A DNA stretch of 64,000 bases from an uncultured cyanobacterium (GCA_963703315.1 OY969811.1:1024001-1088000); one strand, 5' to 3'. Positions 23,489-53,283 are shown, numbered from the stretch's first letter. Program-made: numbers and translations. The notes: generated from the sequence alone by a model not told the origin.

Positions 23489-24004
23489 TTAATCAAATAA
23501 GAATGGTTTGACAAATAAAATCATCCGCTTTAGTTCCTCTTCGTTATGTTTGAGAAGATTATGTCCCCATGTTCTATTTGTATTTTCAGCACAATCTTTA
23601 GCAAGAGATTCTCCAATTGATTCAAAACTTAGTTTCATTTCACTTCTTAACTTCTCTGGTGCAGTCCGCGATCCAAGAATAAATACCCGTTCTTGTAAAT
23701 CCTCTGGAACTTGGCTCTTGATATAACTCAATCGCTCTTGATAGTTCGATTTATTTGGATCATTATAATCATCAAAATCAATAAGCAAGACTATCATCCT
23801 TTTTGTAAATATTCGCATTGCAGAAACATGATTCTTTGTGAAATTATCTACAACTTTTCCCCATCCACCAGATGGGCGCTCAACCTGAATCGCTCTGGAA
23901 TAAAGATCGAGAATATTATTGAATCCGTTAGCAATTTCCTCATTAGCACGGTCTTCGGGTAGCACCAGAATATGTTGAACATATGGATTATTTTTATTTC
24001 TCAT
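23489..24004 (-). CDS. Hypothetical partner of the AAA ATPase (possibly TOPRIM-like)
   Basis: LVLPED ... GGWGKV ... LLIDFDD acidic motifs; 4-nt overlap with the ATPase gene. Confidence 0.6.
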   Translation of the reverse strand: MRNKNNPYVQHILVLPEDRANEEIANGFNNILDLYSRAIQVERPSGGWGKVVDNFTKNHVSAMRIFTKRMIVLLIDFDDYNDPNKSNYQERLSYIKSQVPEDLQERVFILGSRTAPEKLRSEMKLSFESIGESLAKDCAENTNRTWGHNLLKHNEEELKRMILFVKPFLFD

Positions 24005-25164
24005 AATTCTATGTCGCCACGAATCAACGTATCTACAAGATCGCCATTGATAGGGATATCGCTAAGCATCCTAATTAATGTTGGTTCTAAATGACTTTTG
24101 CGATCAAGTATAAAGGTGTTTTCATTGGAGAACTTGCGGATTGCTTCTTCATTATGCGAAGTTACTAAAATCTGACCACTATTCTTAAATGAGCGTCGTA
24201 AGGTTGTAATAAAATGCCCTACCTCTGATAGAGAAAGATAGTTGTCAGGCTCATCCCAGAAACAAAAAGGCTCATAGTACTTATTTGCGGCTAGGACGAC
24301 AGCACAGAGAAAAAAGCATTTTTCCCCATCCGATAAATCTTTAAAATCAACACTCAGTTCTGCATTATTTGCTTCAAACCGAACAATCATGTTTTTAGCA
24401 TCTTTGCCGATCTTTTCGTTCTGAAAATCTTCAATATCAGGCATAACTTCTCGAAGATATCTATCAGCTTGCGTGTAAGCGGCGGGGTAACGACTAAGTA
24501 ATCCAGAGAACCATTCCCCAAAATTTGAACCATCTCGCTTTGGCTCCAAAGTTTCACCACTAGACTCTCCTGTCATCAAGCTTGGAATTGGAGCTAAAAT
24601 GATCATGCGAGATAGCCAATTCCTGAAAATATAAAGTGGATCTTTCTCTGATTGCACCTGAATTAATGGAAGAGCTACAAGATGCCAATCCGCTTGAAAC
24701 ATAAATTGGCTAGGCAATGGCAATTGGTTAGACAAACTGGCCATCCGATAGCCTTGAGATGTCCGAGATTGAATATTGTTAGGGAAAAGTTTGACTTGGG
24801 CTGCTTCACGCAAATAAACTGGATTTCCTGCAACGAGTAATTGTTCTTCAAATACACAAATTTCTTTGGAATTATCTGACAACGCGAATGCAAGAACGTA
24901 CTTGTATAATTGATCTTTAAGTAATACTTCTATTTCAAACCGAATTGGAACATCATACCTACCGCGATTAAAGTCATTAGTCTGTATAAGTTGACCAACT
25001 CTATTGATACCACGACCAATACTTTGTAATATTTCTAATGCAAAAGCAATAGTCGATTTACCTGCACCATTTTTGCCAATTAGAAGAGACGAGGGGAGAT
25101 CCTTTAAATTTAACTCAAAGTTCTCCAAGCATCTGAAATTATGTACATATAGTCTTTGAAGCAT
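24001..25164 (-). CDS. AAA_21/AbiEii-like ABC-type ATPase (probable start MLQRLYV at 25164)
   Basis: NFRCL, GKNGAGKST Walker A, LSDGEK signature, WDEPDNYL Walker B/D-loop, VTSHN. Confidence 0.85.
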   Translation of the reverse strand: MLQRLYVHNFRCLENFELNLKDLPSSLLIGKNGAGKSTIAFALEILQSIGRGINRVGQLIQTNDFNRGRYDVPIRFEIEVLLKDQLYKYVLAFALSDNSKEICVFEEQLLVAGNPVYLREAAQVKLFPNNIQSRTSQGYRMASLSNQLPLPSQFMFQADWHLVALPLIQVQSEKDPLYIFRNWLSRMIILAPIPSLMTGESSGETLEPKRDGSNFGEWFSGLLSRYPAAYTQADRYLREVMPDIEDFQNEKIGKDAKNMIVRFEANNAELSVDFKDLSDGEKCFFLCAVVLAANKYYEPFCFWDEPDNYLSLSEVGHFITTLRRSFKNSGQILVTSHNEEAIRKFSNENTFILDRKSHLEPTLIRMLSDIPINGDLVDTLIRGDIEL

Positions 25165-25240
25165 AAAAAACTTTTCCGATAAAGCCGAATGAGTATTAAA
25201 GTATTTTACAAGATCGGCGATCGCGCCATAATTTCCCAAT

Positions 25241-33878: not shown

Positions 33879-34316
33879 TTAGTCCATTTTCTTTTTAGCT
33901 GCTGTTGATGGATATCGGTTATTTTCGATGAGTATTTGGCGCTCTAAAATACGATCTGCATCATTAAAATCAAGAATTCTTGCGGTAACTTCGCCGATGT
34001 CTGTAGTTGGTTGAATTATCGCTCCATCTAGTTGAAAATGTTCTCTCCATGAGTCTCGGCGAGGGTTGAAGAATCTGACTAGTTCTCCGTTTCGCCAATT
34101 AATTGAGCCTAGATCTGTGCCTTTTTGCAGGTTACAGAATAGGCAAGCATAGCAAAGATTTTCGGCTGTCGAGTCACCGCCATGTTTTACACTAATGATG
34201 TGGTCAACTTGGCAAGATGGCGTATTTTCTTCTGCAATCAGGCAATACTCACATGAATAATCTGCACGTTGTGCAACTAAGCGCCGCAACTCAGCCCTAA
34301 TGTAAGATCGAGGCAT
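33879..34316 (-). CDS. HNH endonuclease (putative toxin)
   Basis: CEYC...VDHIISVKHGG...NLCYACLFCNLQKG; FNPRRDSW. Confidence 0.88.
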   Translation of the reverse strand: MPRSYIRAELRRLVAQRADYSCEYCLIAEENTPSCQVDHIISVKHGGDSTAENLCYACLFCNLQKGTDLGSINWRNGELVRFFNPRRDSWREHFQLDGAIIQPTTDIGEVTARILDFNDADRILERQILIENNRYPSTAAKKKMD

Positions 34317-34578
34317 TTTCTTTAATTCCAGTGTCGATATATTTGTAGGCTTTAGCTTTAGCGAGTCTGAGGATATGTTCTAATACTAAATATTTCTCTA
34401 ATTCTCTTTTATCTTCTTTTGTAAGTTCATTGTTTTTAGCACCGTGAACTAAATCCTCTAGGCGCTCTTGTGCGGCTTCAGAAAGATGGAAGTCGATTAC
34501 GCTCTGGGGAGTTGTGCCAGATGCAATGAAGTCAACAATTTCATCGTAAACTTTGATGGTTTTAGTGGCTGTGTTCAT
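34297..34578 (-). CDS. Small helical protein coupled to the HNH gene (putative antitoxin)
   Basis: YDEIVDFIA...AQERLEDL...LEHILRLAKAKA; 20-nt overlap with the HNH gene. Confidence 0.65.
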   Translation of the reverse strand: MNTATKTIKVYDEIVDFIASGTTPQSVIDFHLSEAAQERLEDLVHGAKNNELTKEDKRELEKYLVLEHILRLAKAKAYKYIDTGIKENASILH

Positions 34579-34652
34579 AGCTAGGTTCTGATTATGATCC
34601 TTGTGGCGATCTGATTATATCATCAGAGCTTTTGGTAATCATTTGCTGTAAT

Positions 34653-34868
34653 TCATGCGTACATCAACCGTCCTTTGGGTGTGGGGATGATTCTTCCTAA
34701 CATTTTTGCTGTTTCTATCCATTCTTGAATAATGATCTCGGCGTTGGCTACGGCTTCAGCATAGCTTTGTCCATCTGCCATGCAACCTGCAAGTTCAGGA
34801 ATTTCAACGATGAACGCATCATCTGATTCACTCCAATAAACAATTAGTTCGTATTTAATTGGTGTCAT
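34653..34868 (-). CDS. HicB-family antitoxin (no adjacent HicA)
   Basis: YWSESDDAFIVEIPELAGCMADGQSYAEAVAN...WIETAK...IPTPKG. Confidence 0.9.
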   Translation of the reverse strand: MTPIKYELIVYWSESDDAFIVEIPELAGCMADGQSYAEAVANAEIIIQEWIETAKMLGRIIPTPKGRLMYA

Positions 34869-35268
34869 TTTCTTTCTGTGGTTCTTGGCTTATTATTTGT
34901 TGAATTTCTTGGCAAATTTTTTCTAGCAAAGGAGCATCTGAAGCAACTACATTATCTTCAATGCGATCGTGTTTGTGATGGGGAAATGTTGATAGATTTA
35001 GCTTTTGATGGTGAGGAGCATTGTCATAGCGAAAAATTAGATCTCCTTCTTTACTCATGTATTGATAGGTATACTTGCCTCTATCAATGGATATTTCTAC
35101 ATCAACAAATTCTCGGATATGCAGTAATGAGCCATCATTAAAATAGATATTGCCTCTAATGAAGCCGAGTGTATCTGTACGGGTTTCTGTCTCAAGTTCA
35201 AATCTTTGAGTAATTGCAAGATTGGAAAGTACATTTCTGATTTCTGCAAAATAATTATCAATCAACAA
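34855..35268 (-). CDS. DUF6516-like putative toxin
   Basis: FNDGSLLHIRE, YTYQY, FRYDNAPHH...TFPHHKH. Confidence 0.8.
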   Translation of the reverse strand: MLIDNYFAEIRNVLSNLAITQRFELETETRTDTLGFIRGNIYFNDGSLLHIREFVDVEISIDRGKYTYQYMSKEGDLIFRYDNAPHHQKLNLSTFPHHKHDRIEDNVVASDAPLLEKICQEIQQIISQEPQKENDTN

Positions 35269-35548
35269 ATTCGATCTCCTTGATGATTGCTTGTTTTTGC
35301 TGTAATTTCTCTAACATCCAAGCTTCGCCTAGCCATTCATCAAAATCTAGGCTATGTTGTAATTGATCGTTGGTGAAAAGGTTAATAAAATTTTCGGTTG
35401 ACCAATGATATTGGGTTTCAAACTGGGTTAGTTTTTGGTGTGTGGTTTGTATTGCTGCTTCAATGCTTTGCAACCTTTTAGCAAGGTCACTTTCGATCAT
35501 TTCTTTGATAGATTCTGGATGACTAGATCTTAATTTCAGTACATTCAT
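35258..35548 (-). CDS. Putative antitoxin partner of the DUF6516-like gene (probable start MNVLK at 35548)
   Basis: LTQFETQYHWSTENF...DFDEW motif; overlaps the toxin start. Confidence 0.65.
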   Translation of the reverse strand: MNVLKLRSSHPESIKEMIESDLAKRLQSIEAAIQTTHQKLTQFETQYHWSTENFINLFTNDQLQHSLDFDEWLGEAWMLEKLQQKQAIIKEIEFVD

Positions 35549-35646
35549 ATTTTTTAGCCTAATCCTATGTCCTAAAATAGCATCAACCAACAAAACTCAA
35601 AAAATTTACATTTTCCTTTTACCCTTTTCCTTTTTCCTTGATCGCC

Positions 35647-35868
35647 CTAGGCAGCAACTAATTGTCTTTCTTGGATAGGGTGATGGTATAAAACCATTAA
35701 CTGTCTTTCTGTTAGGGTTTCGATCGCATAGGCTCTTCCATTGAGGTCGCTAAATTCGACTTCAAAGACTTTAGGTTCGTAAACTTCTACAATTGTGCCA
35801 ACTTGTCCTCGATATAAATGGCAATTGGGGACATCTTCTAAGAGTGCGACTACATCCAATAATTTCAT
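35647..35868 (-). CDS. DUF4926-domain protein (probable start MKLLDVV at 35868)
   Basis: LLDVVALLED...RGQVGTIVEVY...FEVEFSD..GRAYA. Confidence 0.85.
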   Translation of the reverse strand: MKLLDVVALLEDVPNCHLYRGQVGTIVEVYEPKVFEVEFSDLNGRAYAIETLTERQLMVLYHHPIQERQLVAA

Positions 35869-35887
35869 AATAGAATCTTTTTTTCTG

Positions 35888-36142
35888 TTAGTAGGCATCT
35901 TTACGATGACTGACACTTAGCAATAATACAATTAGCTCTCTGTCTTTAATTTCGTAGATAATGCGATAGTCTCCAACTCTGACACGATAGGTATTGTCGT
36001 AGCCTTTAAGCTTTTTAACTCCGTTCGGACGCGGATCGTCGGCTAGAGAGCGCAATGTCACAATCAAGCGATCGCGTTCAATTTTTGAGATGTTATCTAG
36101 CTGCTTTTGGGCTGGTTTAGGGATAACGATCTGATAGCTCAT
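35888..36142 (-). CDS. RelE/ParE-family toxin
   Basis: AQKQL...DPRPNGVKKLKG...YRVRVGDYRIIYEI...HRKDAY. Confidence 0.92.
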   Translation of the reverse strand: MSYQIVIPKPAQKQLDNISKIERDRLIVTLRSLADDPRPNGVKKLKGYDNTYRVRVGDYRIIYEIKDRELIVLLLSVSHRKDAY

Positions 36143-36348
36143 GCTTGATTTGCCTCGTATTGATCGAGGGTTAGATAATCACCTGAGAGATAGGCTGTTT
36201 GGGAAGAGAGAATATTTTCTTTTTCTTCTGAGGTTATTTCCTCTTCTACATAGCGAGATTTGAGAAACAATACAAAGTCAAGGGTTTCTGCTAATAGGGA
36301 TTCAGAAATATTTTCGACTTCTTGAATTAACTTTTCTTTGATAGTCAT
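36139..36348 (-). CDS. Putative antitoxin (DUF2281-like)
   Basis: KEKLIQEVE...LAETLDFVLFLK; ATGA overlap with the RelE gene. Confidence 0.7.
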   Translation of the reverse strand: MTIKEKLIQEVENISESLLAETLDFVLFLKSRYVEEEITSEEKENILSSQTAYLSGDYLTLDQYEANQA

Positions 36349-36378: not shown

Positions 36379-39300
36379 TTACATTGCCTCACGGATCGGC
36401 TGAAGCCAACTGATCGCATTTTGAGTTGTCGGATGCTCTGTGCCAAGTTTTTGTTCGTAAATTTGGATGGCGCGTTGGATGGATTGTAGGGCTTGGGGAT
36501 GACGTTGGGTATTGTGATAGAGGACGGCTAAGTTGAGTAGACTGGTGGCGACAGAGGGATGGTCTGCTCCTAGTTGTCGTTCATTGATTTCGAGCGATCG
36601 CAGATAGAGAGGTTCGGCTTCGCTGTACTTCCCTTGCGATTCGTAAAGTGATGCGAGATTGTTGAGACTGGTGGCGACAGAGGGATGGTCTGCTCCTAGT
36701 TGGCGTTCCCTGATCGAGAGCGATCGCAGATAGAGAGGTTCGGCTTCGCTGTACTTTCCTTGCGATTCGTAAAGATTTGCGAGATTGTTGAGACTGGAAG
36801 CGAGATCGGGATGGTCTGCTCCTAGTTTTTGTTCTCCGATTTCGAGTGATCGCACATAGAGTGGTTCACTTTCGCTGTACTTCCCTTGTACTTGGTAAAG
36901 TAATGCTAGATTGTTGAGACCAGCGGCAACAGAGGGATGGTCTGCTCCTAGTTGGCATTCCCATATCGAGAGCGATCGCACATACAGTGGTTCAGCTTCG
37001 CTGTACTTCCCTTGTACTCGGTAAAGTGATGCCAGATTGTTGAGAGTTTGGGCGACATCGGGATGGTCTGCTCCTAATTTTCGTTCCCCGATTTCGAGTG
37101 ATTGCAGATAGAGGGGTTTGGCTTCGCTGTATTTCCCTTGCGATTCGTAAAGATTTGCGAGATTGTTGAGACTGATGGCAACATCGGGATGGTCTGCTCC
37201 TAGTTGCCGTTCCCTAATCGAGAGCGATCGCACATAGAGTGGTTCGGCTTCGCTGTATTTCCCTTGCGATTCGTAAAATAATGCAAGATTGTTGAGACTG
37301 CTGGCAACAGAGGGATGTTCCGATCCTAGTTGGCGATCGTTGATCGAGAGCGATCGCACTAAAAGTGGCTCGGCTTCACTGTACCTCCCTTGCGCTCGAT
37401 AAAGTTGTGCAAGATTGTTTAGACTGTTGGCGAAATCGGGATTGTCTTCTCCTAGTTGGCGCTCGTTGATCGAGAGTGATCGCAGATAGAGAGGTTCGGC
37501 TTCGCTGTACTTCCCTTGCGCTTGATAAAGTTCTGCAAGATTGTTTAGACTGTTGGCGACATCGGGATTGTCTTCTCCCAGTTGGCGTTCCCTGATTTCG
37601 AGCGATCGCAGATAGAGAGGTTCAGCTTCGCTGTAATTCCCTTGCGCTCGATAAAGTTGTGCAAGACCGTTGATACTGTTGGCGACATCGGGATTGTCTT
37701 CTCCTAGTTGGCGTTCCCTGATTTCGAGCGATCGCAGATGGAGAGGTTCGGCTTCGCTGTATTTCCCTTGCGATTGGTAGACCACAGCTAAACTATTCAC
37801 GCTATTTGCGACATCAATATGGTTTTTACCAAGTCGCTCCTCTTTAATGGCGATCGCTCGAAGAAATATTTGTTCTGCTTCAACATACATTCCTTGTAGT
37901 CGATATAGTCTTGCTAATGAATGTAAATAATCTGACAGGGTGAGAGAACTACCTTTAGTCGTAGCAATCTTAACGGCTTCTTTGGCAGTGATAATTCCAT
38001 CTTGATATTTATTCAATTTATCAAAAACTTGAGAGATTGTATGGAGATAACCCGCCAAAATCATACTGTTCTCAGGCAAAGCCACCCGCGCTTGCTCGAT
38101 CGCCCTCTGATAACCCTTAATCGCCTCACCAAAATAATTTTGAGCAGCCCCAGATTCACCCTTAGCCAAAGCCGCCTTAGCCCGATCATGGGTACTTTGC
38201 GCTTGACGATAGGTTGCCTCAAAAATTGGTGCTTGGTTTAACCGAAAACTACCACCAATGAGATTATTTTTTTGCAGTTTATAGGCACTGACTAAAGCAG
38301 GATTTGTAACGGATTTGAGCCGATCTTCCACAAATTTTTGAGCCGATGCAAAATGTGGGCGGAAGGGTTGCCATGCTGTCACCAGATCCCAAGCCGCAAA
38401 CGCAGGAATCTCATTAGCGCGATCGCTCAGTCCCCGTAACCATGCATCTTGCCAACCCTCGCGATCAAATCCATCCCATTGCATAGCAAAAAACTCATGA
38501 ATTAACCGATGCAAGCGATAGGTTTTACCCTCATCCACACTTTGAATCAGAGTCCTTGTCCGCAAATCAATTTCGGCTTTAGTCAGATTCCGAATTGGCA
38601 CAAAAGCTGGTTGATTCGGCTCCGCAGGTTTCCCTAAAAATGGTAATAGCCCCCTCACCAACTGCCCCAACGAATCCCAAAACCTTTGCCACCAACTTTT
38701 GCGAACAATCGGCGCTGCTGACGGTTGCGGATAGGAACGCACCACCGCCTCCACCAACTCCCAAGGCAAATTGATCGGTTCAAACAAACTCAAAACCCGC
38801 CCTAATTGCTGTGCATCAGGTGACAACTGTTGCCAACTCACCGTAATTACCGCCTTCAAACCCTGCTTAATGTTTTTACTAGCATCAATATTTTCAGGAG
38901 CTTCGGCAATTGGTTCCAATACTTCACTTGCCAGCCCTTCTTGTTCCAATTTAGCGATCGCCTTCGGCAAAGTATCTTGGGTAATCTTCAACCAATTCCC
39001 CACCAAAGTCAGCGCTAAGGGCAAACATCCCAAGCGATCGCAAAGACTTCTGGCAAGCTCAGGATGATCAAGCACCGTTTGCTGATTTGGTTCCGCCCAT
39101 TTTGTCAATACCTGCACCGCCGCTTCAGTCTCCAATTCCTGAATTTCATGCACTGCCAAATTACCGCGCAACTGCGATCGCGAAGTCAGCACAAACCGAA
39201 ACGGACAGCGATCGCCTGAAATCTTTGGTAAATAGGGCGCAACTTGCTCATGATAATTCGTCACATCATCAATAACGATCAGCGCCAATCGCTCCGCACC

Positions 39301-39882
39301 ACAAAATTTTTGCCATGCTTGCCAACCTTCTTCTACCTGTGCTTCTAAAGTTCTCAAATACCGTAAATCGCGATCTTCAGAAAACCGCGACTGCATAAAA
39401 TCCCTGAGATCTTCTCCAAAATGCGCTACATCAAAAATCCCAACCCCACCCACATAATCATTCAGATGCAATTTGCCATACTGCCGCACCAGTTCACTTT
39501 TACCTACACCTGCCATGCCCACAATTAGCACAGTCGGTAAATGTCCCACTTGCTCAGATTGCGCTTGCAACAACCCATGTAGTTTATCTAAGTCAGCCTC
39601 ACGCCCCACAAAATTGCCATTGCGATCAATCTCGCGATCCCCTAGATTGTTATAAAAGCTTTGGTCATGGGTGAACTTTTCCGATTGAAGATCATTTGTG
39701 CGATCGCCGACAATCAAAGTGCCAATATTTACAGTACTTCCAGATTGAGGAACCACCCCAATTTTGTCAGCAATTTTATTCGGCTCATGATGAATCTCTT
39801 GGGAGATATTCGCATTGACATCACCACCAGCCGTGACATTTTCAAGCGCTGTTTGCTTGTTTTGCGGATCTTGTTCAGCCAT
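36379..39882 (-). CDS. NLR-like STAND protein: short N-terminal motifs + NB-ARC + about 12 TPR (42-aa) repeats
   Basis: FVGRE, GMAGVGKS Walker A, LIVIDDV Walker B, LTSR, GCLPLAL, YRLHRLI (MHD-like); repeated HPxVAxSLNNLAxLYxxQGKYSEAEPLY. Confidence 0.92.
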   Translation of the reverse strand: MAEQDPQNKQTALENVTAGGDVNANISQEIHHEPNKIADKIGVVPQSGSTVNIGTLIVGDRTNDLQSEKFTHDQSFYNNLGDREIDRNGNFVGREADLDKLHGLLQAQSEQVGHLPTVLIVGMAGVGKSELVRQYGKLHLNDYVGGVGIFDVAHFGEDLRDFMQSRFSEDRDLRYLRTLEAQVEEGWQAWQKFCGAERLALIVIDDVTNYHEQVAPYLPKISGDRCPFRFVLTSRSQLRGNLAVHEIQELETEAAVQVLTKWAEPNQQTVLDHPELARSLCDRLGCLPLALTLVGNWLKITQDTLPKAIAKLEQEGLASEVLEPIAEAPENIDASKNIKQGLKAVITVSWQQLSPDAQQLGRVLSLFEPINLPWELVEAVVRSYPQPSAAPIVRKSWWQRFWDSLGQLVRGLLPFLGKPAEPNQPAFVPIRNLTKAEIDLRTRTLIQSVDEGKTYRLHRLIHEFFAMQWDGFDREGWQDAWLRGLSDRANEIPAFAAWDLVTAWQPFRPHFASAQKFVEDRLKSVTNPALVSAYKLQKNNLIGGSFRLNQAPIFEATYRQAQSTHDRAKAALAKGESGAAQNYFGEAIKGYQRAIEQARVALPENSMILAGYLHTISQVFDKLNKYQDGIITAKEAVKIATTKGSSLTLSDYLHSLARLYRLQGMYVEAEQIFLRAIAIKEERLGKNHIDVANSVNSLAVVYQSQGKYSEAEPLHLRSLEIRERQLGEDNPDVANSINGLAQLYRAQGNYSEAEPLYLRSLEIRERQLGEDNPDVANSLNNLAELYQAQGKYSEAEPLYLRSLSINERQLGEDNPDFANSLNNLAQLYRAQGRYSEAEPLLVRSLSINDRQLGSEHPSVASSLNNLALFYESQGKYSEAEPLYVRSLSIRERQLGADHPDVAISLNNLANLYESQGKYSEAKPLYLQSLEIGERKLGADHPDVAQTLNNLASLYRVQGKYSEAEPLYVRSLSIWECQLGADHPSVAAGLNNLALLYQVQGKYSESEPLYVRSLEIGEQKLGADHPDLASSLNNLANLYESQGKYSEAEPLYLRSLSIRERQLGADHPSVATSLNNLASLYESQGKYSEAEPLYLRSLEINERQLGADHPSVATSLLNLAVLYHNTQRHPQALQSIQRAIQIYEQKLGTEHPTTQNAISWLQPIREAM
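36530..37800. repeat. 126-bp tandem repeats encoding ten near-identical TPR units
   Basis: Exact 126-nt period (register 36594, 36720 ... 37728). Confidence 0.9.
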
Positions 39883-39897
39883 GCTAAATTCCCTTTA

Positions 39898-40853
39898 TAG
39901 CTATAGCCAGCTAGGTTAGGACATAAAATAGAAAGAAACTGAGACATCTGAGCAACAACAATGCCAAAACCATATAGTTACGATTTGCGTCAAAAGGTAA
40001 TGCAAGCAATCGAAATGGATGGACTGAAGAAAAATGAAGCCAGTCAATTGTTCGGGATTAGTCGAAACACAATCAACTTGTGGTTTGAGAGACGGGAAGA
40101 AACAGGAGATATAACCGTAAAGGCAAGAGCATCGTCTAGTCAGAAGCCCAAAATTAGCGACTGGGAAAAGTTTCGAGAATTTGTCAAAGAGCATGAGGAT
40201 AAGACCCAAGCAGAGATGGCAGAATTATGGGGAAATATCAGTCAAAGGTCTATATCACGAGCGTTAAAACAGATAGGATTTACCCGTAAAAAAAAACTTA
40301 TGGTTATCGGGAACGAGATGAAGAAAAACGTAATGAGTTTCGCACAGCCTTAGGCGATCCAAAAGCATCCCACTTAGTTTACGTTGATGAATCAGGGATG
40401 GATGAACGTGATAATTATGGATATGGATGGTCTGCAAAAGGTGAGCGAATTCATGGACTCAAAGCAGGTCGTCGTCAGGGACGTATTAATATGATTGCGG
40501 GATATCGAGATGGACAACTAATTGCCCCCTTTACAATTAAAGGCTGTTGCAACCGCAACGTATTTGAAATCTGGTTAGAATCTTGCTTGATTCCAACTCT
40601 CAAGGCTGGGCAATGGGTAATTATCGATAATGCTACTTTCCATCATGGTGGACGCATTCAGGATTTGATAGCAGCAGCAGGATGTAAGGTCGTCTATTTA
40701 CCTCCATATTCTCCAGACCTTAATCGCATTGAGAAATGTTGGGCTTGGCTCAAATCTCGTATTCGTAAACTCCTACGCAATTCAGCTAATCTTCATGATG
40801 CTATTGACTCCGTTCTTGCCCTTGCTGCGTCCTAACTTGACTGGCTATAGCTA
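39898..40853 (+). mobile_element. IS630-family insertion sequence, 956 bp, TA target duplication
   Basis: TIRs TAGCTATAGCCAGCTAGGTTAGGAC / GTCCTAACTTGACTGGCTATAGCTA (22/25 match); TA at 39896-39897 and 40854-40855. Confidence 0.93.
39961..40835 (+). CDS. IS630 transposase in two frames joined by a -1 frameshift at the A9 run (40288-40296)
   Basis: ORF A MPKPYSYDLRQKV (HTH); the -1 frame continues KKTYGYRERDEEKR...YVDESG, IIDNATFH, LPPYSPDLNRIEKCW (DDE). Confidence 0.9.
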
Positions 40854-40868
40854 TATCTTGATTGGATA

Positions 40869-41180
40869 TCAACTAGCAGAATATTTTGCGCGGCTTTGCT
40901 CATATAAACTCGCCACAGAAATATGCGTTAAATAAAACTCTTCACCTTCCGAATCGCGCAAAGCATCCACATAAGCATCAATCCCACGCGGTTTTGGTAA
41001 CTCATCGACATCGGCAAGATGTAAAACCAACGCCGATCGCATCAGCTTTGTCGTTTCTTCCAAAGTCTCACCCGTAGCAATACAACCCGCCACATCAGGT
41101 GAATATGCTGAAAACCCAGTGTCACTTTTTTCTAAGACGATGAGATATTGGTCAATCATTTCGCGTACTTTTGTGGTCAT
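40869..41180 (-). CDS. HicB-like antitoxin
   Basis: YLIVLEKSDTGFSAYSPDVAGCIATGETLEET. Confidence 0.85.
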   Translation of the reverse strand: MTTKVREMIDQYLIVLEKSDTGFSAYSPDVAGCIATGETLEETTKLMRSALVLHLADVDELPKPRGIDAYVDALRDSEGEEFYLTHISVASLYEQSRAKYSAS

Positions 41181-41401
41181 GATTCCCTTAAAAGTTCTTC
41201 TACCGTCAAACCAATATCGCGAGCAATCTGACGTAACAAAGTCGGTGAAATATCCCGTCCCTTATGACATGGAACCGTAGTACCTCGTCCATCCGCATGA
41301 CGAAACTGCTTATGCGATCCTCTTTGTCTCACTTCCACAAAACCAAGATTTTCTAGCAATCGAATAACTTGCTGCGGTTTAAGGACAGGAATATTACCCA
41401 T
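41177..41401 (-). CDS. HicA-family toxin
   Basis: LENLGFVEVRQRGSHKQFRH...TTVPCH...LLRQIARD. Confidence 0.92.
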   Translation of the reverse strand: MGNIPVLKPQQVIRLLENLGFVEVRQRGSHKQFRHADGRGTTVPCHKGRDISPTLLRQIARDIGLTVEELLRES

Positions 41402-41421
41402 AATTTTATTTGCCTATTGAT

Positions 41422-41631
41422 TTAGGCGATCGCAATTAACTGAGTGCCGACAAACTCTGACTGCGGTGGAATCACGTCTTCTTCTAAAAGCATCGCAATT
41501 ACTTCTTGCAAATTCTCACGCAACTCATCTAGAGTCTCTCCTTGAGAATGTGCGCCCACAAATGAAGGGACATAACCCACATATAGGTTAGTGTCTACAT
41601 CTTTTTCAATAACAGCAGTAAATACCTTCAT
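41422..41631 (-). CDS. HicB-like antitoxin (short)
   Basis: FTAVIEKD...YVGYVP...GAHSQGETLDELRENLQEVI. Confidence 0.88.
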   Translation of the reverse strand: MKVFTAVIEKDVDTNLYVGYVPSFVGAHSQGETLDELRENLQEVIAMLLEEDVIPPQSEFVGTQLIAIA

Positions 41632-41654
41632 AAAATCCTCTGTAAAAAACTGAA

Positions 41655-42074
41655 TTACATATTGAACGTTGCAATATCCGCCTTGCCACCACTTTGCACC
41701 ACAATACCAATTTTTTCGGCTAACTTGTTGGGATTCTGAGATTTTGGCTGGCTCAGTTGTAATTGCAAAGCCTCAACCTTAGCCGCTAGCTCTTTATTGC
41801 TAGATAAAAGCGATCGCACCTCATCCAACAACTTCACCACATCAGGATCATCAGCGATCACCTCTACATCAATCACCGCCTGTCCAGCATCAAAAGCTTC
41901 ACCCGCACTAATCGCTTTTACAGTCTGCGTATTTGGAGCCTTACGACTGAGAACAGACCAAAGCGATCTCGCCAGCTTCACCGTCTCATCGGTAATATTT
42001 TCGCCAACCTTAGTGAGAGAACCAGTGCCAACAATTACCAACAAACCCACAATTAAAGAAGAAACTGGCTCCAT
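41655..42074 (-). CDS. Bell/HeLo-like small helical protein with a C-terminal motif shared with the NLR N-terminus (putative amyloid-activated effector)
   Basis: Hydrophobic N-terminal helix MEPVSSLIVGLLVIVGTGSLTKVGE; C-terminal PNKLAEKIGIVVQSGGKADIATF vs NLR PNKIADKIGVVPQSGSTVNIGTL. Confidence 0.7.
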   Translation of the reverse strand: MEPVSSLIVGLLVIVGTGSLTKVGENITDETVKLARSLWSVLSRKAPNTQTVKAISAGEAFDAGQAVIDVEVIADDPDVVKLLDEVRSLLSSNKELAAKVEALQLQLSQPKSQNPNKLAEKIGIVVQSGGKADIATFNM

Positions 42075-42111
42075 ATTTACACCAATAATTTAGGAATACT
42101 TTGATTTTAAC

Positions 42112-42546
42112 TCACACATTACTACTAGAAACTAAAGCGATCGCCTCTTGAATAATGCGATCGCGATCGACCATTTCCCCTAACTCCACCGATTCATAAT
42201 GTCCACCGAACGCCTCACCCGCAGCAGCATCTAACGCAATGTCATAGGCATCTTCCAAAGCCTCGCGTAGTTCTGAAGGTTCGCAATAATTTCCTTTAGC
42301 CTTACGCCGTTGGTTAGTACGCTGAATTTCTCGTACCGAATTTTTAATTGAAAGATCCCCCGATCTTGTAGTGCGATTTTCGGCACGTTGTTTGATCAGA
42401 TGGAGTAGCAAGATTTTGGCAAAGCTATATATCTTATTCAGCTTGTCATCCTTGCTCATCTCTGTCATCTCTTCCACTATCAGCAAGGCATCGGAGATAT
42501 TGCCACTGAGCAAAAATGCCTTTAGTTCTAACAACTCTTCCATCAC
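42112..42546 (-). CDS. DUF29-family protein
   Basis: EEMTEMSKDDKLNKIYS...LLLHLIK...RTTRSGDLSI...EDAYDIALDAAAGEA. Confidence 0.75.
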   Translation of the reverse strand: MMEELLELKAFLLSGNISDALLIVEEMTEMSKDDKLNKIYSFAKILLLHLIKQRAENRTTRSGDLSIKNSVREIQRTNQRRKAKGNYCEPSELREALEDAYDIALDAAAGEAFGGHYESVELGEMVDRDRIIQEAIALVSSSNV

Positions 42547-42699
42547 CTAAGCCTTCTGTGTTAAATCACCCAAATCCATATCACCTGTTACCTTGACATT
42601 CTTCAGCATCGTCTGCTCGACCGAGCCGCTAACCGATAGAGCTGTTTGCTTCATTGATTTTGCTCGAAGGTTTACGCCATCAATATCACTAGCTATCAC
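42547..42699 (-). other. Unannotated 50-codon ORF or 3' gene remnant made of two beta-rich pseudo-repeats that resemble the NLR's first N-terminal motif
   Basis: Manual translation from GTG: VIASDIDGVNLRAKSMKQTALSVSGSVEQTMLKNVKVTGDMDLGDLTQKA*; its stop abuts the DUF29 start. Confidence 0.55.
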
Positions 42700-42726
42700 T
42701 GGTACAATTTTAGGCGCAATTGTAGA

Positions 42727-43458
42727 TTAAACCCGTCGCCGTAGCCAGAAAAGCGAAATTAAGATCAGTCCTGTGAGCAACCCGTAGATTGCACCAATTA
42801 CAAATGTCAAAAAATATCCCAGATGCTTATCAAGCAGAAAAATACCTACTTGCAAAGTGAGATACCAACTAATTGTCGTGCCAACCATCCACCAGTCCGC
42901 TAGTTGAGAATAGGGCTTGAGAATGATCGATTGGGCTATGCCTGTGGTCAAACCACGTAAACAGCTATAGATCGTTAGAAATTCAACCGCATCACCATAG
43001 GTAAGTACTAGCTGCCAACTTGCCCAAGAACTCAGCGTACCGCCCAAAGTGCCGCCGATCCATGTTGCCCATAGCCATCCCATACCGAAGATGTAGTTTC
43101 GGATGACTAACCATTGAGCAAGGGCGATCGCCATACTCATCACAGCAAAAGTTAGCAAAATATTCAGATTGCCTTGCACATAGTCAACCACAAAAAAGCT
43201 GATGATGCCGCCTATAGAATAACTAATGGCATTTGCCACAATCCACAGGGGCAGAAAATTCCAGTGTGGTTTTCCTATGGCTAGCTCTTTTGTCTTAAAC
43301 TTTACTCTAAGTCGTTCCAACAAAATTTGAGCCTCATTAATGAGAAGACTATACTTTTTACTACCAGGAACCACAAATAAATTTGCCTGTGGGGGCTTAT
43401 GGGCAGAGCTAAAAACCCTAAAACTAGTGCAGCAAGTTTGCCCTGCGGAGGTAGTCAC
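42727..43458 (-). CDS. Hypothetical multi-pass membrane protein (true start probably downstream of 43340)
   Basis: About six hydrophobic segments with repeated AQW/AQS...W motifs; the ORF-track N-terminus overlaps the divergent glycosyltransferase and is probably over-extended. Confidence 0.6.
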   Translation of the reverse strand: MTTSAGQTCCTSFRVFSSAHKPPQANLFVVPGSKKYSLLINEAQILLERLRVKFKTKELAIGKPHWNFLPLWIVANAISYSIGGIISFFVVDYVQGNLNILLTFAVMSMAIALAQWLVIRNYIFGMGWLWATWIGGTLGGTLSSWASWQLVLTYGDAVEFLTIYSCLRGLTTGIAQSIILKPYSQLADWWMVGTTISWYLTLQVGIFLLDKHLGYFLTFVIGAIYGLLTGLILISLFWLRRRV

Positions 43459-50145: not shown

Positions 50146-53100
50146 ATGATCGTCAATAAGTTAGATTTGATTGATCTTTCCAAGATTCTTTCGCCAGAGC
50201 ATTTACTCAAGTTGCCTTTAGCGAATGATAGCAATAGTTTAAATAAGCCTTTTTATAATGAGTTGTTGTATATCATTGGGCTTGCGGAAACTAAGGAGGG
50301 TGGCAAGAAGCTAATTGGGAGGGTAAAAGAAGGCGATCGCCATGATGGTTCTTTGATTGAGAATGCGATCACTCGTTTAGATAGTTTGGATAAGATTTCG
50401 CAATTAAAGAAGCCTGAAGAGTTTGGGGATAGTTACGAGGAGCAGCTTTTCAATGTGGCGCTAAGGTTGTCGATTAATTGGATTAATCGCATCTTGTTTC
50501 TAAAGCTATTGGAGGCGCAGTTAATTAAGTATCATCAAGGCGATCGCGATTTTTCTTTTCTGAATTTAGGAAAAGTTCAAAATTATGATGATCTTGATAG
50601 TTTATTTTTTGATGTGTTGACAAGGGAGCAGGACAAGCGCAAGGCAAAGATTAAAGCCACTTTTGCGAATGTGCCTTATTTGAATAGTTCGCTATTTGAG
50701 CCAACGGAGACGGAGCAGGAGACGATTGTAATTAGTAATCTCAAGGATCGGAGTCTGCCAATTTTTTGGGCGACGGTGCTCAAAGATAGTAATGGCAAAA
50801 GGCGATCGGGTGAGTTGAATGCGTTGGCTTATTTGTTTGAGTTTTTGGAAGCCTATGATTTTAGTAGTGATGAGTTGGAGAGTGGGCAGGAAGATCGCGA
50901 GAAGTTAATTAATGCTTCGGTGTTGGGGTTGATCTTTGAGAAGATTAATGGCTATAAGGATGGGTCTTTTTATACGCCGAGTTTCATTACGATGTATATG
51001 TGTCGGGAGACGATACGGTGTGCAGTAGTGCAGAAGTTTAATGAGGAGAAGGGTTGGAGTTGTGAGAATATTCAGGATCTCTGTGAGGATTTGGGTCGTT
51101 ATATTAAGGAGTCAGATAGAGTAGTTCGCAGAAATGAGGCTAATGGAATTATGAATAGTCTCAAGATTTGCGATCCTGCGGTGGGTTCGGGGCATTTTTT
51201 GGTGTCGGCTTTGAATGAGATGATCGCGATTAAGCATTATCTGGGGATTTTGGGCGATCGGCATGGTGAGGTGTTGAGTCAGTATGAGATTGAGGTGGTG
51301 AATGATAAGTTGAAGGTGACTTTGGATGGTAAGTTGTTTGCCTATAATCCTAAAAACAAGGAAAGTCAAAGAGTTCAGGAAACGCTGTTTCATGAGAAGC
51401 AGTCGATTATTGAGGGTTGTTTGTTTGGGGTGGATATTAATCCCAATTCGGTGACGATTTGCCGTTTGCGGTTGTGGATTGAGCTTTTGAAGAATGCTTA
51501 TTATCGGGTTGATGGCAATCTCGAAACTTTGCCAAATATCGACATTAATATCAAGTGTGGGAATTCTTTGATTAGTCGGTTTGGGTTGGATGTGGATGTG
51601 AAGCAGGTTTTGCAGAAGCAGAAGTTTAGTATTGAGCAGTATCGGAATGCGGTGCAGTCTTATCGCAGTGCGGAGAGTAAGGCGCAAAAGCGCGAGATGG
51701 AGGGTTTGATTGCGAAGATTAAGGCTGGTTTTAGTTCGAGTTTGTTGGCTGGTGATCCTAAGAAGGTGAAGTTACGGCAGTTGCAGGCAGAGCTTTATGG
51801 TGTGGAAAATCAGATGTTGTTATTGGAGGAGACTAGGTTGGAGGTTAAGGCGAGGGAGAAGAGGGTTAATAAGTTAAATAATGAGATTGATAAGTTAAGT
51901 GCGGAGATTGAGGATATTGAAAGCGGTCGGCTATATGAGAATGCTCTGGAATGGCGGTTTGAGTTTCCTGAAGTTTTGAATGATGATGGTGATTTTGTTG
52001 GGTTTGATGTTGTGATTGGAAATCCGCCATATATTCGACAAGAAGAAATTAAGGAACAGAAACCACATTTACAGGCTAATTTTACAACTTATTCGGGAAC
52101 GGCTGATTTGTATGTATTTTTTGTTGAAAAAGGCTTTCAAGTCTTAAAGGATAAAGGTCAATTTTGCTACATCATGCCTAACAAGTGGATGCAAGCAGGT
52201 TATGGAAAAGCGTTAAGAAATTACTTCTTAGAAACTCAATTACAATCAATTATTGATTTTGGTGATTTGCAAGTATTTGAAGAAGCAACTACTTATCCTT
52301 GTATTATCAATGCTTCAAAACAAAAGAGCAGTAATAATTTTATTTCTGCTGTAGTGAAAACACTTAATTACAGTGATGGATTTGTAGAATATCTAGAAAG
52401 TATCTCTAATAAAATCACAGCCGAATCGTTAAGTGATGAAACTTGGATGATTTCTTCTAGTAACGATCAAGATTTACTTTCAAGAATAAAAAGCAAATTT
52501 TTTGCATTGACTGAATATATTGGTGGTGAAGCTCATTATGGAATAAAGACAGGGTTAACAGAAGCATTTGTAATTAGTGATGAAACTCAAAACGGACTAA
52601 TTAGTAGAGACAACAAAAGTTCAGAAATAATTCGTCCATTTGTTTTAGGGCGTAATATAAAACCTTATGCAATACCTGAAGCAGAAAAATATTTAATAAA
52701 ATTTGAGAAGGGATTTACTAATTCACACAGAAAAAATCAAGAGGCTTGGGCATGGTTATTTAGTGAATATCCAGTCATTTGTGATTATTTAATTCCATTC
52801 AAGGACAAAGCAGAAAAAAGAACAGATAAAGGTGATTATTGGTGGGAACTAAGAGCGTGTGATTATTATCAAGAATTTGAAAAACCTAAAATAATGTATC
52901 AAAAGTTTCAAGTAAAGCCATGTTTTATCTATGACGATCAAGGTCTTTACTGTAATGATTCTATGTGGATTATTTCAAAGGATGACAAAGTTCTTCTAGC
53001 TATTCTTAACTCAAATATGGGTTGGTGGCTAATTTCAAAATATTGCACCGCTATTCAAAACGGTTATCAATTAATCTGGAAATACTTTGGACAAATCCCC

Positions 53101-53283
53101 ATTCCAAAAGCAAATTCAAAACAAGCAAAACTAATCACCTCAATTGTTGATAAAATCCTCACTGCTAAAAAGGGCGATCGCCATGCTGATACGAGTAAAT
53201 TAGAAAAGGAGATCGATGCTTTAGTTTATCAACTTTATGAGTTGACAGAAGAAGAAATTAAAATAGTAGAAGGAGAGAGGTGA
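50146..53283 (+). CDS. Type IIG (Eco57I-like) R-M protein: N6-adenine MTase + TRD, apparently lacking the N-terminal nuclease domain
   Basis: GSFYTP, CDPAVGSGHFL (motif I), GVDIN, DVVIGNPPY (motif IV), TaqI-like C-terminal TRD, EIDALVYQLYELTEEEI. Confidence 0.88.
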   Translation: MIVNKLDLIDLSKILSPEHLLKLPLANDSNSLNKPFYNELLYIIGLAETKEGGKKLIGRVKEGDRHDGSLIENAITRLDSLDKISQLKKPEEFGDSYEEQLFNVALRLSINWINRILFLKLLEAQLIKYHQGDRDFSFLNLGKVQNYDDLDSLFFDVLTREQDKRKAKIKATFANVPYLNSSLFEPTETEQETIVISNLKDRSLPIFWATVLKDSNGKRRSGELNALAYLFEFLEAYDFSSDELESGQEDREKLINASVLGLIFEKINGYKDGSFYTPSFITMYMCRETIRCAVVQKFNEEKGWSCENIQDLCEDLGRYIKESDRVVRRNEANGIMNSLKICDPAVGSGHFLVSALNEMIAIKHYLGILGDRHGEVLSQYEIEVVNDKLKVTLDGKLFAYNPKNKESQRVQETLFHEKQSIIEGCLFGVDINPNSVTICRLRLWIELLKNAYYRVDGNLETLPNIDINIKCGNSLISRFGLDVDVKQVLQKQKFSIEQYRNAVQSYRSAESKAQKREMEGLIAKIKAGFSSSLLAGDPKKVKLRQLQAELYGVENQMLLLEETRLEVKAREKRVNKLNNEIDKLSAEIEDIESGRLYENALEWRFEFPEVLNDDGDFVGFDVVIGNPPYIRQEEIKEQKPHLQANFTTYSGTADLYVFFVEKGFQVLKDKGQFCYIMPNKWMQAGYGKALRNYFLETQLQSIIDFGDLQVFEEATTYPCIINASKQKSSNNFISAVVKTLNYSDGFVEYLESISNKITAESLSDETWMISSSNDQDLLSRIKSKFFALTEYIGGEAHYGIKTGLTEAFVISDETQNGLISRDNKSSEIIRPFVLGRNIKPYAIPEAEKYLIKFEKGFTNSHRKNQEAWAWLFSEYPVICDYLIPFKDKAEKRTDKGDYWWELRACDYYQEFEKPKIMYQKFQVKPCFIYDDQGLYCNDSMWIISKDDKVLLAILNSNMGWWLISKYCTAIQNGYQLIWKYFGQIPIPKANSKQAKLITSIVDKILTAKKGDRHADTSKLEKEIDALVYQLYELTEEEIKIVEGER

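Follow-up and report, generated by a model that had tools for sequence, protein, structure and literature searches.

Do two genes in a cyanobacterial chromosome, encoded on one strand and sharing a short motif, specify a receptor and an effector that communicate by amyloid templating? The question is raised by a 64,000-nucleotide stretch from an uncultured cyanobacterium (GCA_963703315.1 OY969811.1:1024001-1088000; here called the window), in which a preliminary description had noted that the C-terminus of a 139-amino-acid protein (41655-42074, minus strand) resembles residues 34 to 56 of a 1167-amino-acid protein with NB-ARC and tetratricopeptide repeat (TPR) regions (36379-39882, minus strand). 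Both open reading frames (ORFs) are present as noted. We conclude that they probably make up a Bell/BASS-NLR module (BASS, bacterial amyloid signaling sequence; NLR, NOD-like receptor) for regulated cell death, with two components, in a Pseudanabaena chromosome. The reading of the two genes as a receptor-effector module, offered at the outset, is supported by the published Bell/BASS-NLR layout, by the presence of the motif BASS5, and by paired switching of motif class in relatives; amyloid formation and killing by this BASS5 pair are what we infer by analogy with relatives that have been tested.

Residues 115-137 of the small protein (PNKLAEKIGIVVQSGGKADIATF; 41664-41732, minus strand), hereafter the effector, and residues 34-56 of the large protein (PNKIADKIGVVPQSGSTVNIGTL; 39715-39783, minus strand), hereafter the receptor, are identical at 13 of 23 positions, the same value as originally given. 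The effector's final 23 to 31 residues align with receptor residues 26-56, and pairwise comparison with BLASTP lengthens the match to 15 identities in 31 positions (E = 1e-7). When the last 60 residues of the effector were aligned with the first 100 residues of the receptor by the Smith-Waterman algorithm, the score was 76, compared to 23.6 ± 4.4 for shuffled effector tails; a score of 76 was reached by 0 of 2,000 shuffles. Effector residues A119, I122, and G123 occupy three of the seven columns that are invariant among 18 BASS5-type Bell proteins, which diverge down to 25% identity.

Specificity was gauged with profile hidden Markov models (pHMMs) over the whole genome, a single contig of 4,565,174 bp providing 96,239 stop-to-stop frames and 5.17 million residues. 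The first BASS5 pHMM, built from 10 motif instances taken from relatives only, gave four genome-wide matches, every one at a protein end: the effector C-terminus (E = 3e-15), the N-terminus of the window receptor (E = 5e-12), the N-terminus of a second NLR (genome positions 38842-41232; E = 4e-9), and the N-terminus of a 345-amino-acid CHAT-EAD9 protein (genome positions 3745930-3746967; E = 2e-6). The next best frame followed at E = 0.09. A pHMM constructed from 15 effector-side tails alone likewise retrieved both NLRs (E = 2.9e-4 and 7.2e-4) and the CHAT protein (E = 2.2e-3), and beyond these three N-termini returned noise at E > 2. Among 1,731 N-termini, the BASS5 motif of the receptor ranked first (E = 3.1e-7).

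Relatives provide a further line of evidence. A scan restricted to one genome per species yielded 22 related loci. An NLR-type ORF is encoded downstream, in the same orientation, in 18 of them; the four loci without a counted NLR either lie at contig ends (L001 and L020) or show none within 8 kb (L008 and L022). The preliminary description had suggested checking whether the motif co-occurs at NLR N-termini and nearby small-protein C-termini, and this is what was found: in 16 of the 18 relatives with both genes, the effector tail and the NLR N-terminus belong to one motif class (L004 and L016 are unlabeled), a result to be read as classification rather than as a test, since the class labels come from pHMMs built on these same sequences. 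The same blocks emerged independently of the labels from a score matrix of 15 tails by 15 N-termini, in which cognate combinations averaged 54.5 and noncognate ones 37.7. In relatives, then, the predicted effector and receptor motifs switch class together. The Bell domain itself is 60 to 90% identical within the genus, with 31 invariant columns, and carries at least five unrelated types of tail (BASS5, BASS3-like, a BASS4 double repeat, one that we term type d, and BASS9-like). A conserved domain with swapped tails is as expected of a modular signaling tag, and, judged from these alignments, the tag is exchanged like a cassette on one Bell domain. The idea that unrelated termini came to resemble one another by chance or through low complexity draws on the shortness of the motif and nothing else; because of the shuffles, the gap in the genome-wide search before E = 0.09, and the co-variation of effector and receptor motifs across relatives, it is already refuted, and its probability is close to nil. 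The motif match is real and specific.

Whether the motif belonged to a described family had at first been uncertain, and comparison with published sequence sets settled the matter. In supplement 1 of Dyrka et al. 2021 (PMC8086366), the README equates class C07 with BASS5 and class C06 with BASS4. The effector-side entry C07_s040 has exactly the tail sequence of the orthologue from Pseudanabaena frigida (locus L002), a protein 78% identical to the window effector; the entry agrees with the last 36 residues of the window effector at 31 positions and differs at five. The receptor-side entry C07_s035/OYQ63523.1 is identical to the NLR N-terminus of Pseudanabaena sp. SR411 (locus L003). Because Pseudanabaena orthologues from both the effector and the receptor sides sit in the published C07 sets, the motif is assigned to BASS5. 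Strings nearly identical to the BASS4 (C06) tails considered below are also present in the published sets (PMC8086366), and the text of the 2020 preprint names “Pseudoanabaena” among the genera with matches (10.1101/2020.01.06.895854). The system, the motif family, and the genus are thus in print, and the pair is real and not new, because the same receptor-to-effector design has already been described for Pseudanabaena.

The effector gene (41655-42074, minus strand) encodes a helical region spanning residues 1 to ∼108, a linker, and the C-terminal BASS5 tail. Its N-terminus, MEPVSSLIVGLLVIVGTG, has an MEPVS start, in which an acidic residue at position 2 is followed by a hydrophobic helix; the highest Kyte-Doolittle 15-residue window begins at residue 4, so that the hydrophobic opening helix reported initially is confirmed. 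According to the text of the 2020 preprint, an acidic residue at position 2 or 3 with a hydrophobic helix is a trait of the Bell/HeLo type (10.1101/2020.01.06.895854), and the preprint on Bab/Agp terms it the “MEPIS” motif (10.1101/2024.11.07.622273). Homologues numbered 168 at E ≤ 0.01 among 229 candidates, the best being 91% identical, and all named ones are from Pseudanabaena; the host genome is Pseudanabaena. A profile of 25 homologues retrieved 86 representatives (50% clustering) at E ≤ 1e-3 among 1.84 billion proteins. The 51 of these relatives that were aligned are 114 to 174 amino acids long, mostly have an MEP or MDP start, and have tails resembling published BASS3, BASS5, BASS7, and BASS9 strings. 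AlphaFold2 (AF2), run on a 61-sequence alignment, predicted helices at residues 4-16, 19-22, 29-45, 50-56, 63-71, 77-92, and 94-108, with a predicted local distance difference test (pLDDT) value of 58 to 81 in the helical blocks, a disordered tail at residues 110-139 (pLDDT < 50), and a mean of 64.6; a model based on the 25-sequence genus alignment (pLDDT 49.6) was discarded in favor of this one. At 41879-42088, metagenome contigs of two runs (X1 and X2) skip or diverge over 208 bp in the 5′ part of the effector gene, and the N-terminal segment of Bell probably differs in other strains.

The receptor gene (36379-39882, minus strand) encodes N-terminal motifs, an NB-ARC domain, and a TPR array. 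Pfam assigns NB-ARC to residues 95-317 (E = 1.7e-8), followed by TPR_12 (E = 1.5e-185, 11 stretches). As had been proposed, the receptor has no N-terminal effector domain in Pfam, the earliest domains starting at residues 85 to 95. A Walker A sequence (GMAGVGKS) stands at residue 122 and a Walker B-type sequence (LIVIDDV) at residue 201, and the TPR repeats occupy 36539-37779 (minus strand) with a period of 126 bp, 9.8 copies, and 81% matches. The ATPase motifs are intact and the TPR array is fast-evolving; high internal repeat conservation is known in fungal and bacterial NLRs, as the 2020 preprint text reports (10.1101/2020.01.06.895854).

The two genes had been described as lying on the same strand in one island. 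The strand is confirmed, since both are on the minus strand; the adjacency is not, since the genes are 1,772 bp apart, with three hic genes and an IS630-type insertion sequence (IS) between them. Following the effector gene by 24 bp is a second hicB-like (UPF0150) gene (41422-41631, minus strand; Pfam UPF0150 and HicB_lk_antitox), and then come a hicA toxin gene (41177-41401, minus strand; HicA_toxin, E = 2.3e-20), a hicB antitoxin gene (40869-41180, minus strand; HicB_lk_antitox, E = 2.3e-8), and the IS (39896-40855, plus strand). The IS proper measures 956 bp (39898-40853), is flanked by a TA target duplication, has 27-nt inverted repeats that are 89% complementary, and contains transposase ORFs at 39961-40353 and 40398-40835 (Pfam HTH_Tnp_IS630 and DDE_3). 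Along the receptor strand, the hicB stop codon lies 13 bp before the IS and the receptor ATG 14 bp after it; a Shine-Dalgarno-like AAGGGA is still present between the IS and the ATG. The genome contains four copies of the IS, two of them 100% and two 98.4% identical, and in metagenome run X2 one contig passes straight from 39895 to 40854, lacking 958 bp bounded by TA..TA; it represents an IS-free allele. Because of the near-identical copies and the IS-free allele, the insertion is considered recent. Without it, hicB and the receptor gene would be ∼28 bp apart. In one relative (L014), a hicB-like gene and hicA directly precede a receptor gene whose product matches the window receptor at 80% identity over the first 100 residues; the hic genes are older than the IS insertion.

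Several observations weigh against reading the pair as a receptor-effector module. The IS, with its transposase on the opposite strand, cuts the receptor off from upstream promoters. Effector and receptor genes in the Pseudanabaena clade are noncontiguous, unlike 57% of the published collinear pairs, which lie within ≤10 bp of each other according to the 2020 preprint text (10.1101/2020.01.06.895854), and the spaced layout therefore looks lineage specific. The motifs tested in the available text of the two BASS preprints are BASS1 and BASS3, in a fungal host and in vitro (10.1101/2020.01.06.895854), and BASS11, as Bab/Agp in Escherichia coli (10.1101/2024.11.07.622273); no BASS5 experiment was found there. 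Neither Pfam nor NCBIfam nor PADLOC has a family that covers the effector, and a profile of it run against PDB sequences gave coiled-coil noise alone. Of the structural prediction proposed earlier, the helical domain and the disordered tail were obtained, while a tie to HeLo, MLKL, or Bab was not: Foldseek against the PDB gave no match at E ≤ 0.001 with a model of mean pLDDT 64.6, and the top VIA-align match (Z = 5.6) was generically helical. In the text of the 2024 preprint, Bell folds are said to vary widely in topology (10.1101/2024.11.07.622273). A Pfam scan over all 61 members of the deep alignment likewise returned scattered coiled-coil noise alone; PF20701 (HetE-N), to which 20% of the members of one ESM Atlas cluster had pointed, was rejected when that scan gave no match to it. 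A complex prediction with two copies each of receptor residues 1-62 and effector residues 100-139 lent no support (score 0.02, mark 0.32) and counts neither way. Because the structure searches are uninformative, membership in the Bell family rests on sequence, architecture, and context and not on fold; on those grounds, the small protein is classed as a Bell-family effector.

The position of the IS raises the possibility that the pair belongs to this family of systems and is no longer functional here, the IS silencing or deregulating the receptor in a decaying locus. Its place 14 bp before the ATG in opposite orientation is consistent with such decay, as are the remnant of a lost Bell gene next door (see below) and the state of the genome's second Bell gene and of two DUF29 genes, each of which is split into two frames. 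Set against these points, neither the effector nor the receptor ORF is truncated and both retain their conserved motifs, intact homologues match the effector at up to 91% identity, the Shine-Dalgarno-like sequence is kept, the IS is recent and polymorphic, and a second intact NLR with BASS5 could still drive the effector. We regard decay as unlikely, though with some claim to consideration. What the recent insertion did was to sever the receptor gene from its upstream operon, and whether expression of the two genes is currently coupled is uncertain; promoter and terminator scans of 39700-42800 found fewer promoter-like sites than in shuffles and were uninformative, and among public runs none of RNA was listed as containing the locus.

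By analogy with tested systems, the module would operate as follows. Binding of a ligand to the TPR array would cause NB-ARC to oligomerize, and the oligomerized receptors would gather their N-terminal motifs into a cross-beta (amyloid) nucleus. This nucleus would template the BASS5 tail of the effector, polymerization of the tail would free the hydrophobic MEPVS helix for membrane attack, and that attack would kill the cell, in abortive infection or as the sacrifice of one filament cell. Alternatively, the shared motif could be a stoichiometric docking tag, acting by beta-strand addition or through a short heterodimer interface and recruiting the effector without self-propagating amyloid. The AF2 monomer, in which the tail is merely disordered, and the limitation of the experiments in the two preprints to motifs other than BASS5 leave room for docking; against it, the length, position, and G/N/Q/V/I-rich composition of BASS5 are those of motifs proven to form prions and fibrils in the 2020 preprint text (10.1101/2020.01.06.895854), and the motif occurs on Bell, NLR, and CHAT proteins alike, as reported for BASS11 (10.1101/2024.11.07.622273). 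Docking alone thus seems improbable, and we favor signaling by amyloid templating.

The intervening hic genes have counterparts elsewhere. The spacer between effector and receptor contains one or more small genes of the antitoxin, toxin-antitoxin, or DUF29 type in 17 of the 18 relatives with both genes: a RelB-like antitoxin (L002, L003, L007, and L013), DUF29 (L009, L010, L015, L017, L019, and L021), DUF29 with a hicB-like gene (L004 and L014, the latter also with hicA), hicB or hicA-hicB (L011 and L012), or MNT and HepT (L005 and L006, and L018 by likeness to L005). The spacer is empty in L016, where effector and receptor are contiguous. The frame of the middle gene opens one codon past the effector stop, and in L009, L010, L014, L015, L017, and this genome's second locus the middle gene runs into the receptor start codon. 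The middle genes may act together with the module or may simply have settled in the spacer. In the window, a DUF29 gene (42112-42546, minus strand; Pfam DUF29, E = 1.7e-5) lies upstream of the effector gene. DUF29 adjoins the Bell gene in 16 of the 22 related loci, and, among the loci examined, a BASS4-tailed effector gene always has DUF29 downstream of it. Close DUF29 paralogues are found at four loci in the genome: one at each of the three NLR loci and a fourth ahead of a gene pair that includes a PtuA-like ATPase. The DUF29 protein has no relative in the PDB and no PADLOC or NCBIfam family, and a literature search for the name returned a single paper, an interaction screen of 2007.

The receptor may carry a second tag ahead of BASS5. 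Residues ∼9-30 (KQTALENVTAGGDVNANISQEI; 39793-39858, minus strand) resemble the receptor-side motif of BASS4-type pairs as well as the type d effector tails. A mixed pHMM from relatives matches this segment at E = 1.4e-11, and its alignment scores with the effector tails of L013 and L014 are 51 (reached in 0 of 5,000 shuffles) and 41 (3 of 5,000). An effector-side-only BASS4 pHMM matched no NLR genome-wide and placed the window receptor first among the 1,731 N-termini at an E value of only 0.017. Taken together, these comparisons are suggestive of a BASS4-like tag. Both labels are found on seven receptors (the window's, those of L002, L003, L007, L013, and L014, and the genome's second NLR), which sit beside BASS5-tailed effectors (four), BASS4- or type d-tailed effectors (two), or no effector (one). 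An interpretation of L013 and L014 as mismatched pairs was rejected once the first motif of the receptor was recognized. The text of both BASS preprints describes no tandem heterotypic motifs, the figures, the 2020 Table S2, and the bioRxiv supplements lying outside that search.

A possible trace of a matching effector lies just upstream of the DUF29 gene, where the frame 42547-42726 (minus strand) specifies a BASS4 double-repeat tail that lacks its Bell domain. This tail matches those of BASS4-type Bell proteins (effector-side pHMM, E = 4e-14) and is in frame behind the TAA of a 243-amino-acid multipass membrane ORF (42727-43458). DNA homology to the Bell(BASS4)-DUF29 units of relatives stops at ∼42713-42725, at the stop codon of that ORF, so a fusion of membrane protein and BASS4 tail broken by a stop codon was rejected, and we read 42547-42726 as the putative remnant of a deleted second Bell gene. 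The simplest history is an arrangement Bell(BASS4)-DUF29-Bell(BASS5)-hic-NLR from which the first Bell gene was then deleted. A two-effector layout is intact in L011/L035, but the receptor there has BASS3 only.

Further carriers of the tag were found outside the window. Only three NB-ARC ORFs exist in the whole genome. The second NB-ARC/TPR protein (genome positions 38842-41232, plus strand; L031:1043-3433) is 796 amino acids long and has a BASS4-like plus BASS5 N-terminus. No Bell gene is beside it; a TumE toxin gene and a split DUF29 gene follow, and its 138-amino-acid upstream neighbor has no Pfam match. This second NLR may signal to the window effector from a distance. The 345-amino-acid CHAT (caspase-like) and EAD9 protein (genome positions 3745930-3746967, plus strand; L030:931-1968), whose next gene encodes a TPR protein, combines the BASS5-like N-terminus (E = 2e-6) with a BASS4-like segment at residues ∼265-284 (E = 6e-4); the text of the 2020 preprint also speaks of amyloid motifs on CHAT proteins (10.1101/2020.01.06.895854). 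Given BASS5 on the second NLR and on CHAT-EAD9, the tag probably wires a small network and not a single pair. A more elaborate scheme, in which the Pseudanabaena module is a tight three-part operon with the third gene as a possible brake or regulator, and in which a two-tag receptor (BASS4-like and BASS5) fires Bell-BASS4 (missing from this locus today), Bell-BASS5, and the both-tag CHAT-EAD9, is conceivable, and we put it forward tentatively, with more doubt than conviction. A third module (genome positions 2969385-2972933, plus strand; L032) contains a split DUF29 gene, a split Bell gene with a type d tail, a RelB-like antitoxin gene, and an intact 776-amino-acid NLR.

Other conflict-type genes lie nearby or share components with the module. 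Directly behind the NLR gene, at 35888-36348 (minus strand), Pfam identifies a DUF2281 antitoxin gene and a ParE toxin gene, a pair that is likewise directly behind the NLR in L017; the region 3′ of the receptor as a whole (33879-36348, minus strand) consists of small conflict genes, with DUF2281/ParE, an unassigned 111-amino-acid ORF, a TumE toxin gene, and an HNH endonuclease gene. An AbiLi/PtuA-like AAA ATPase gene and a small partner occupy 23489-25239 of the window (minus strand). Elsewhere in the genome (2070058-2073013, plus strand), the fourth DUF29 paralogue stands before the PtuA-like ATPase gene and its partner, which encodes 330 amino acids. The window also encodes a 1,045-amino-acid type IIG-like restriction-modification protein (50146-53283, plus strand; DUF7814, Eco57I methylase, and TaqI_C), and the GC skew in its 50- to 52-kb bin is unusually high (0.42).

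No new principle emerges from this locus. NLR-to-effector amyloid signaling was described for filamentous bacteria and has lately been tied to antiphage defense, as the two preprint texts recount (10.1101/2020.01.06.895854; 10.1101/2024.11.07.622273), and a module with its layout is confirmed to be present, and actively reshuffled, in Pseudanabaena. One near-invariant Bell domain with at least five tails amounts to a natural specificity panel for cross-seeding, and the presence or absence of the IS shortly before the receptor gene provides a natural pair of alleles. The third gene that recurs in the spacer is a lineage feature of interest. If the receptor does have two tags, one sensor could fire two effector classes, and branching of an amyloid signal would become testable.

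Three known systems come closest to the window pair. HET-S/NWD2 of Podospora anserina comprises a fungal HeLo effector and an NLR. The window pair would resemble it in two respects, a receptor N-terminal motif that templates a C-terminal amyloid motif of the effector and an effector N-terminal helix that targets the membrane, both taken here by analogy; HET-S has the HRAM motif and a HeLo domain, whereas the window pair has BASS5 and Bell, and neither a sequence nor a fold match between the two was obtained. Bab/Agp of E. coli, reportedly an abortive-infection antiphage system, has a Bell-like domain with a conserved “MEPIS” N-terminus, and its motif, BASS11, is also found on CHAT, EAD, NACHT, and NB-ARC proteins (10.1101/2024.11.07.622273). 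From the text of that preprint, the likeness lies in a small helical effector with a “MEPIS”-type start and a C-terminal motif in common with a neighboring sensor; the differences are that the Agp sensor is TPR-GreA/B-PIN and not an NLR, that the Bab domain is shorter (∼80 amino acids, “Babybell”), and that the motif family is BASS11 and not BASS5. The third system comprises the cyanobacterial Bell/BASS5/NB-ARC-TPR pairs of Dyrka et al. (10.1101/2020.01.06.895854; PMC8086366), with which, as far as the preprint text describes them, the window pair shares effector and motif families, receptor architecture, and a same-strand arrangement whose 1,772-bp gap falls inside the authors' 5-kb window. 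It differs from them by the three hic genes and the IS between the genes, and its receptor may in addition carry a BASS4-like motif, whereas the orthologous OYQ63523.1 is labeled BASS5 only (PMC8086366).

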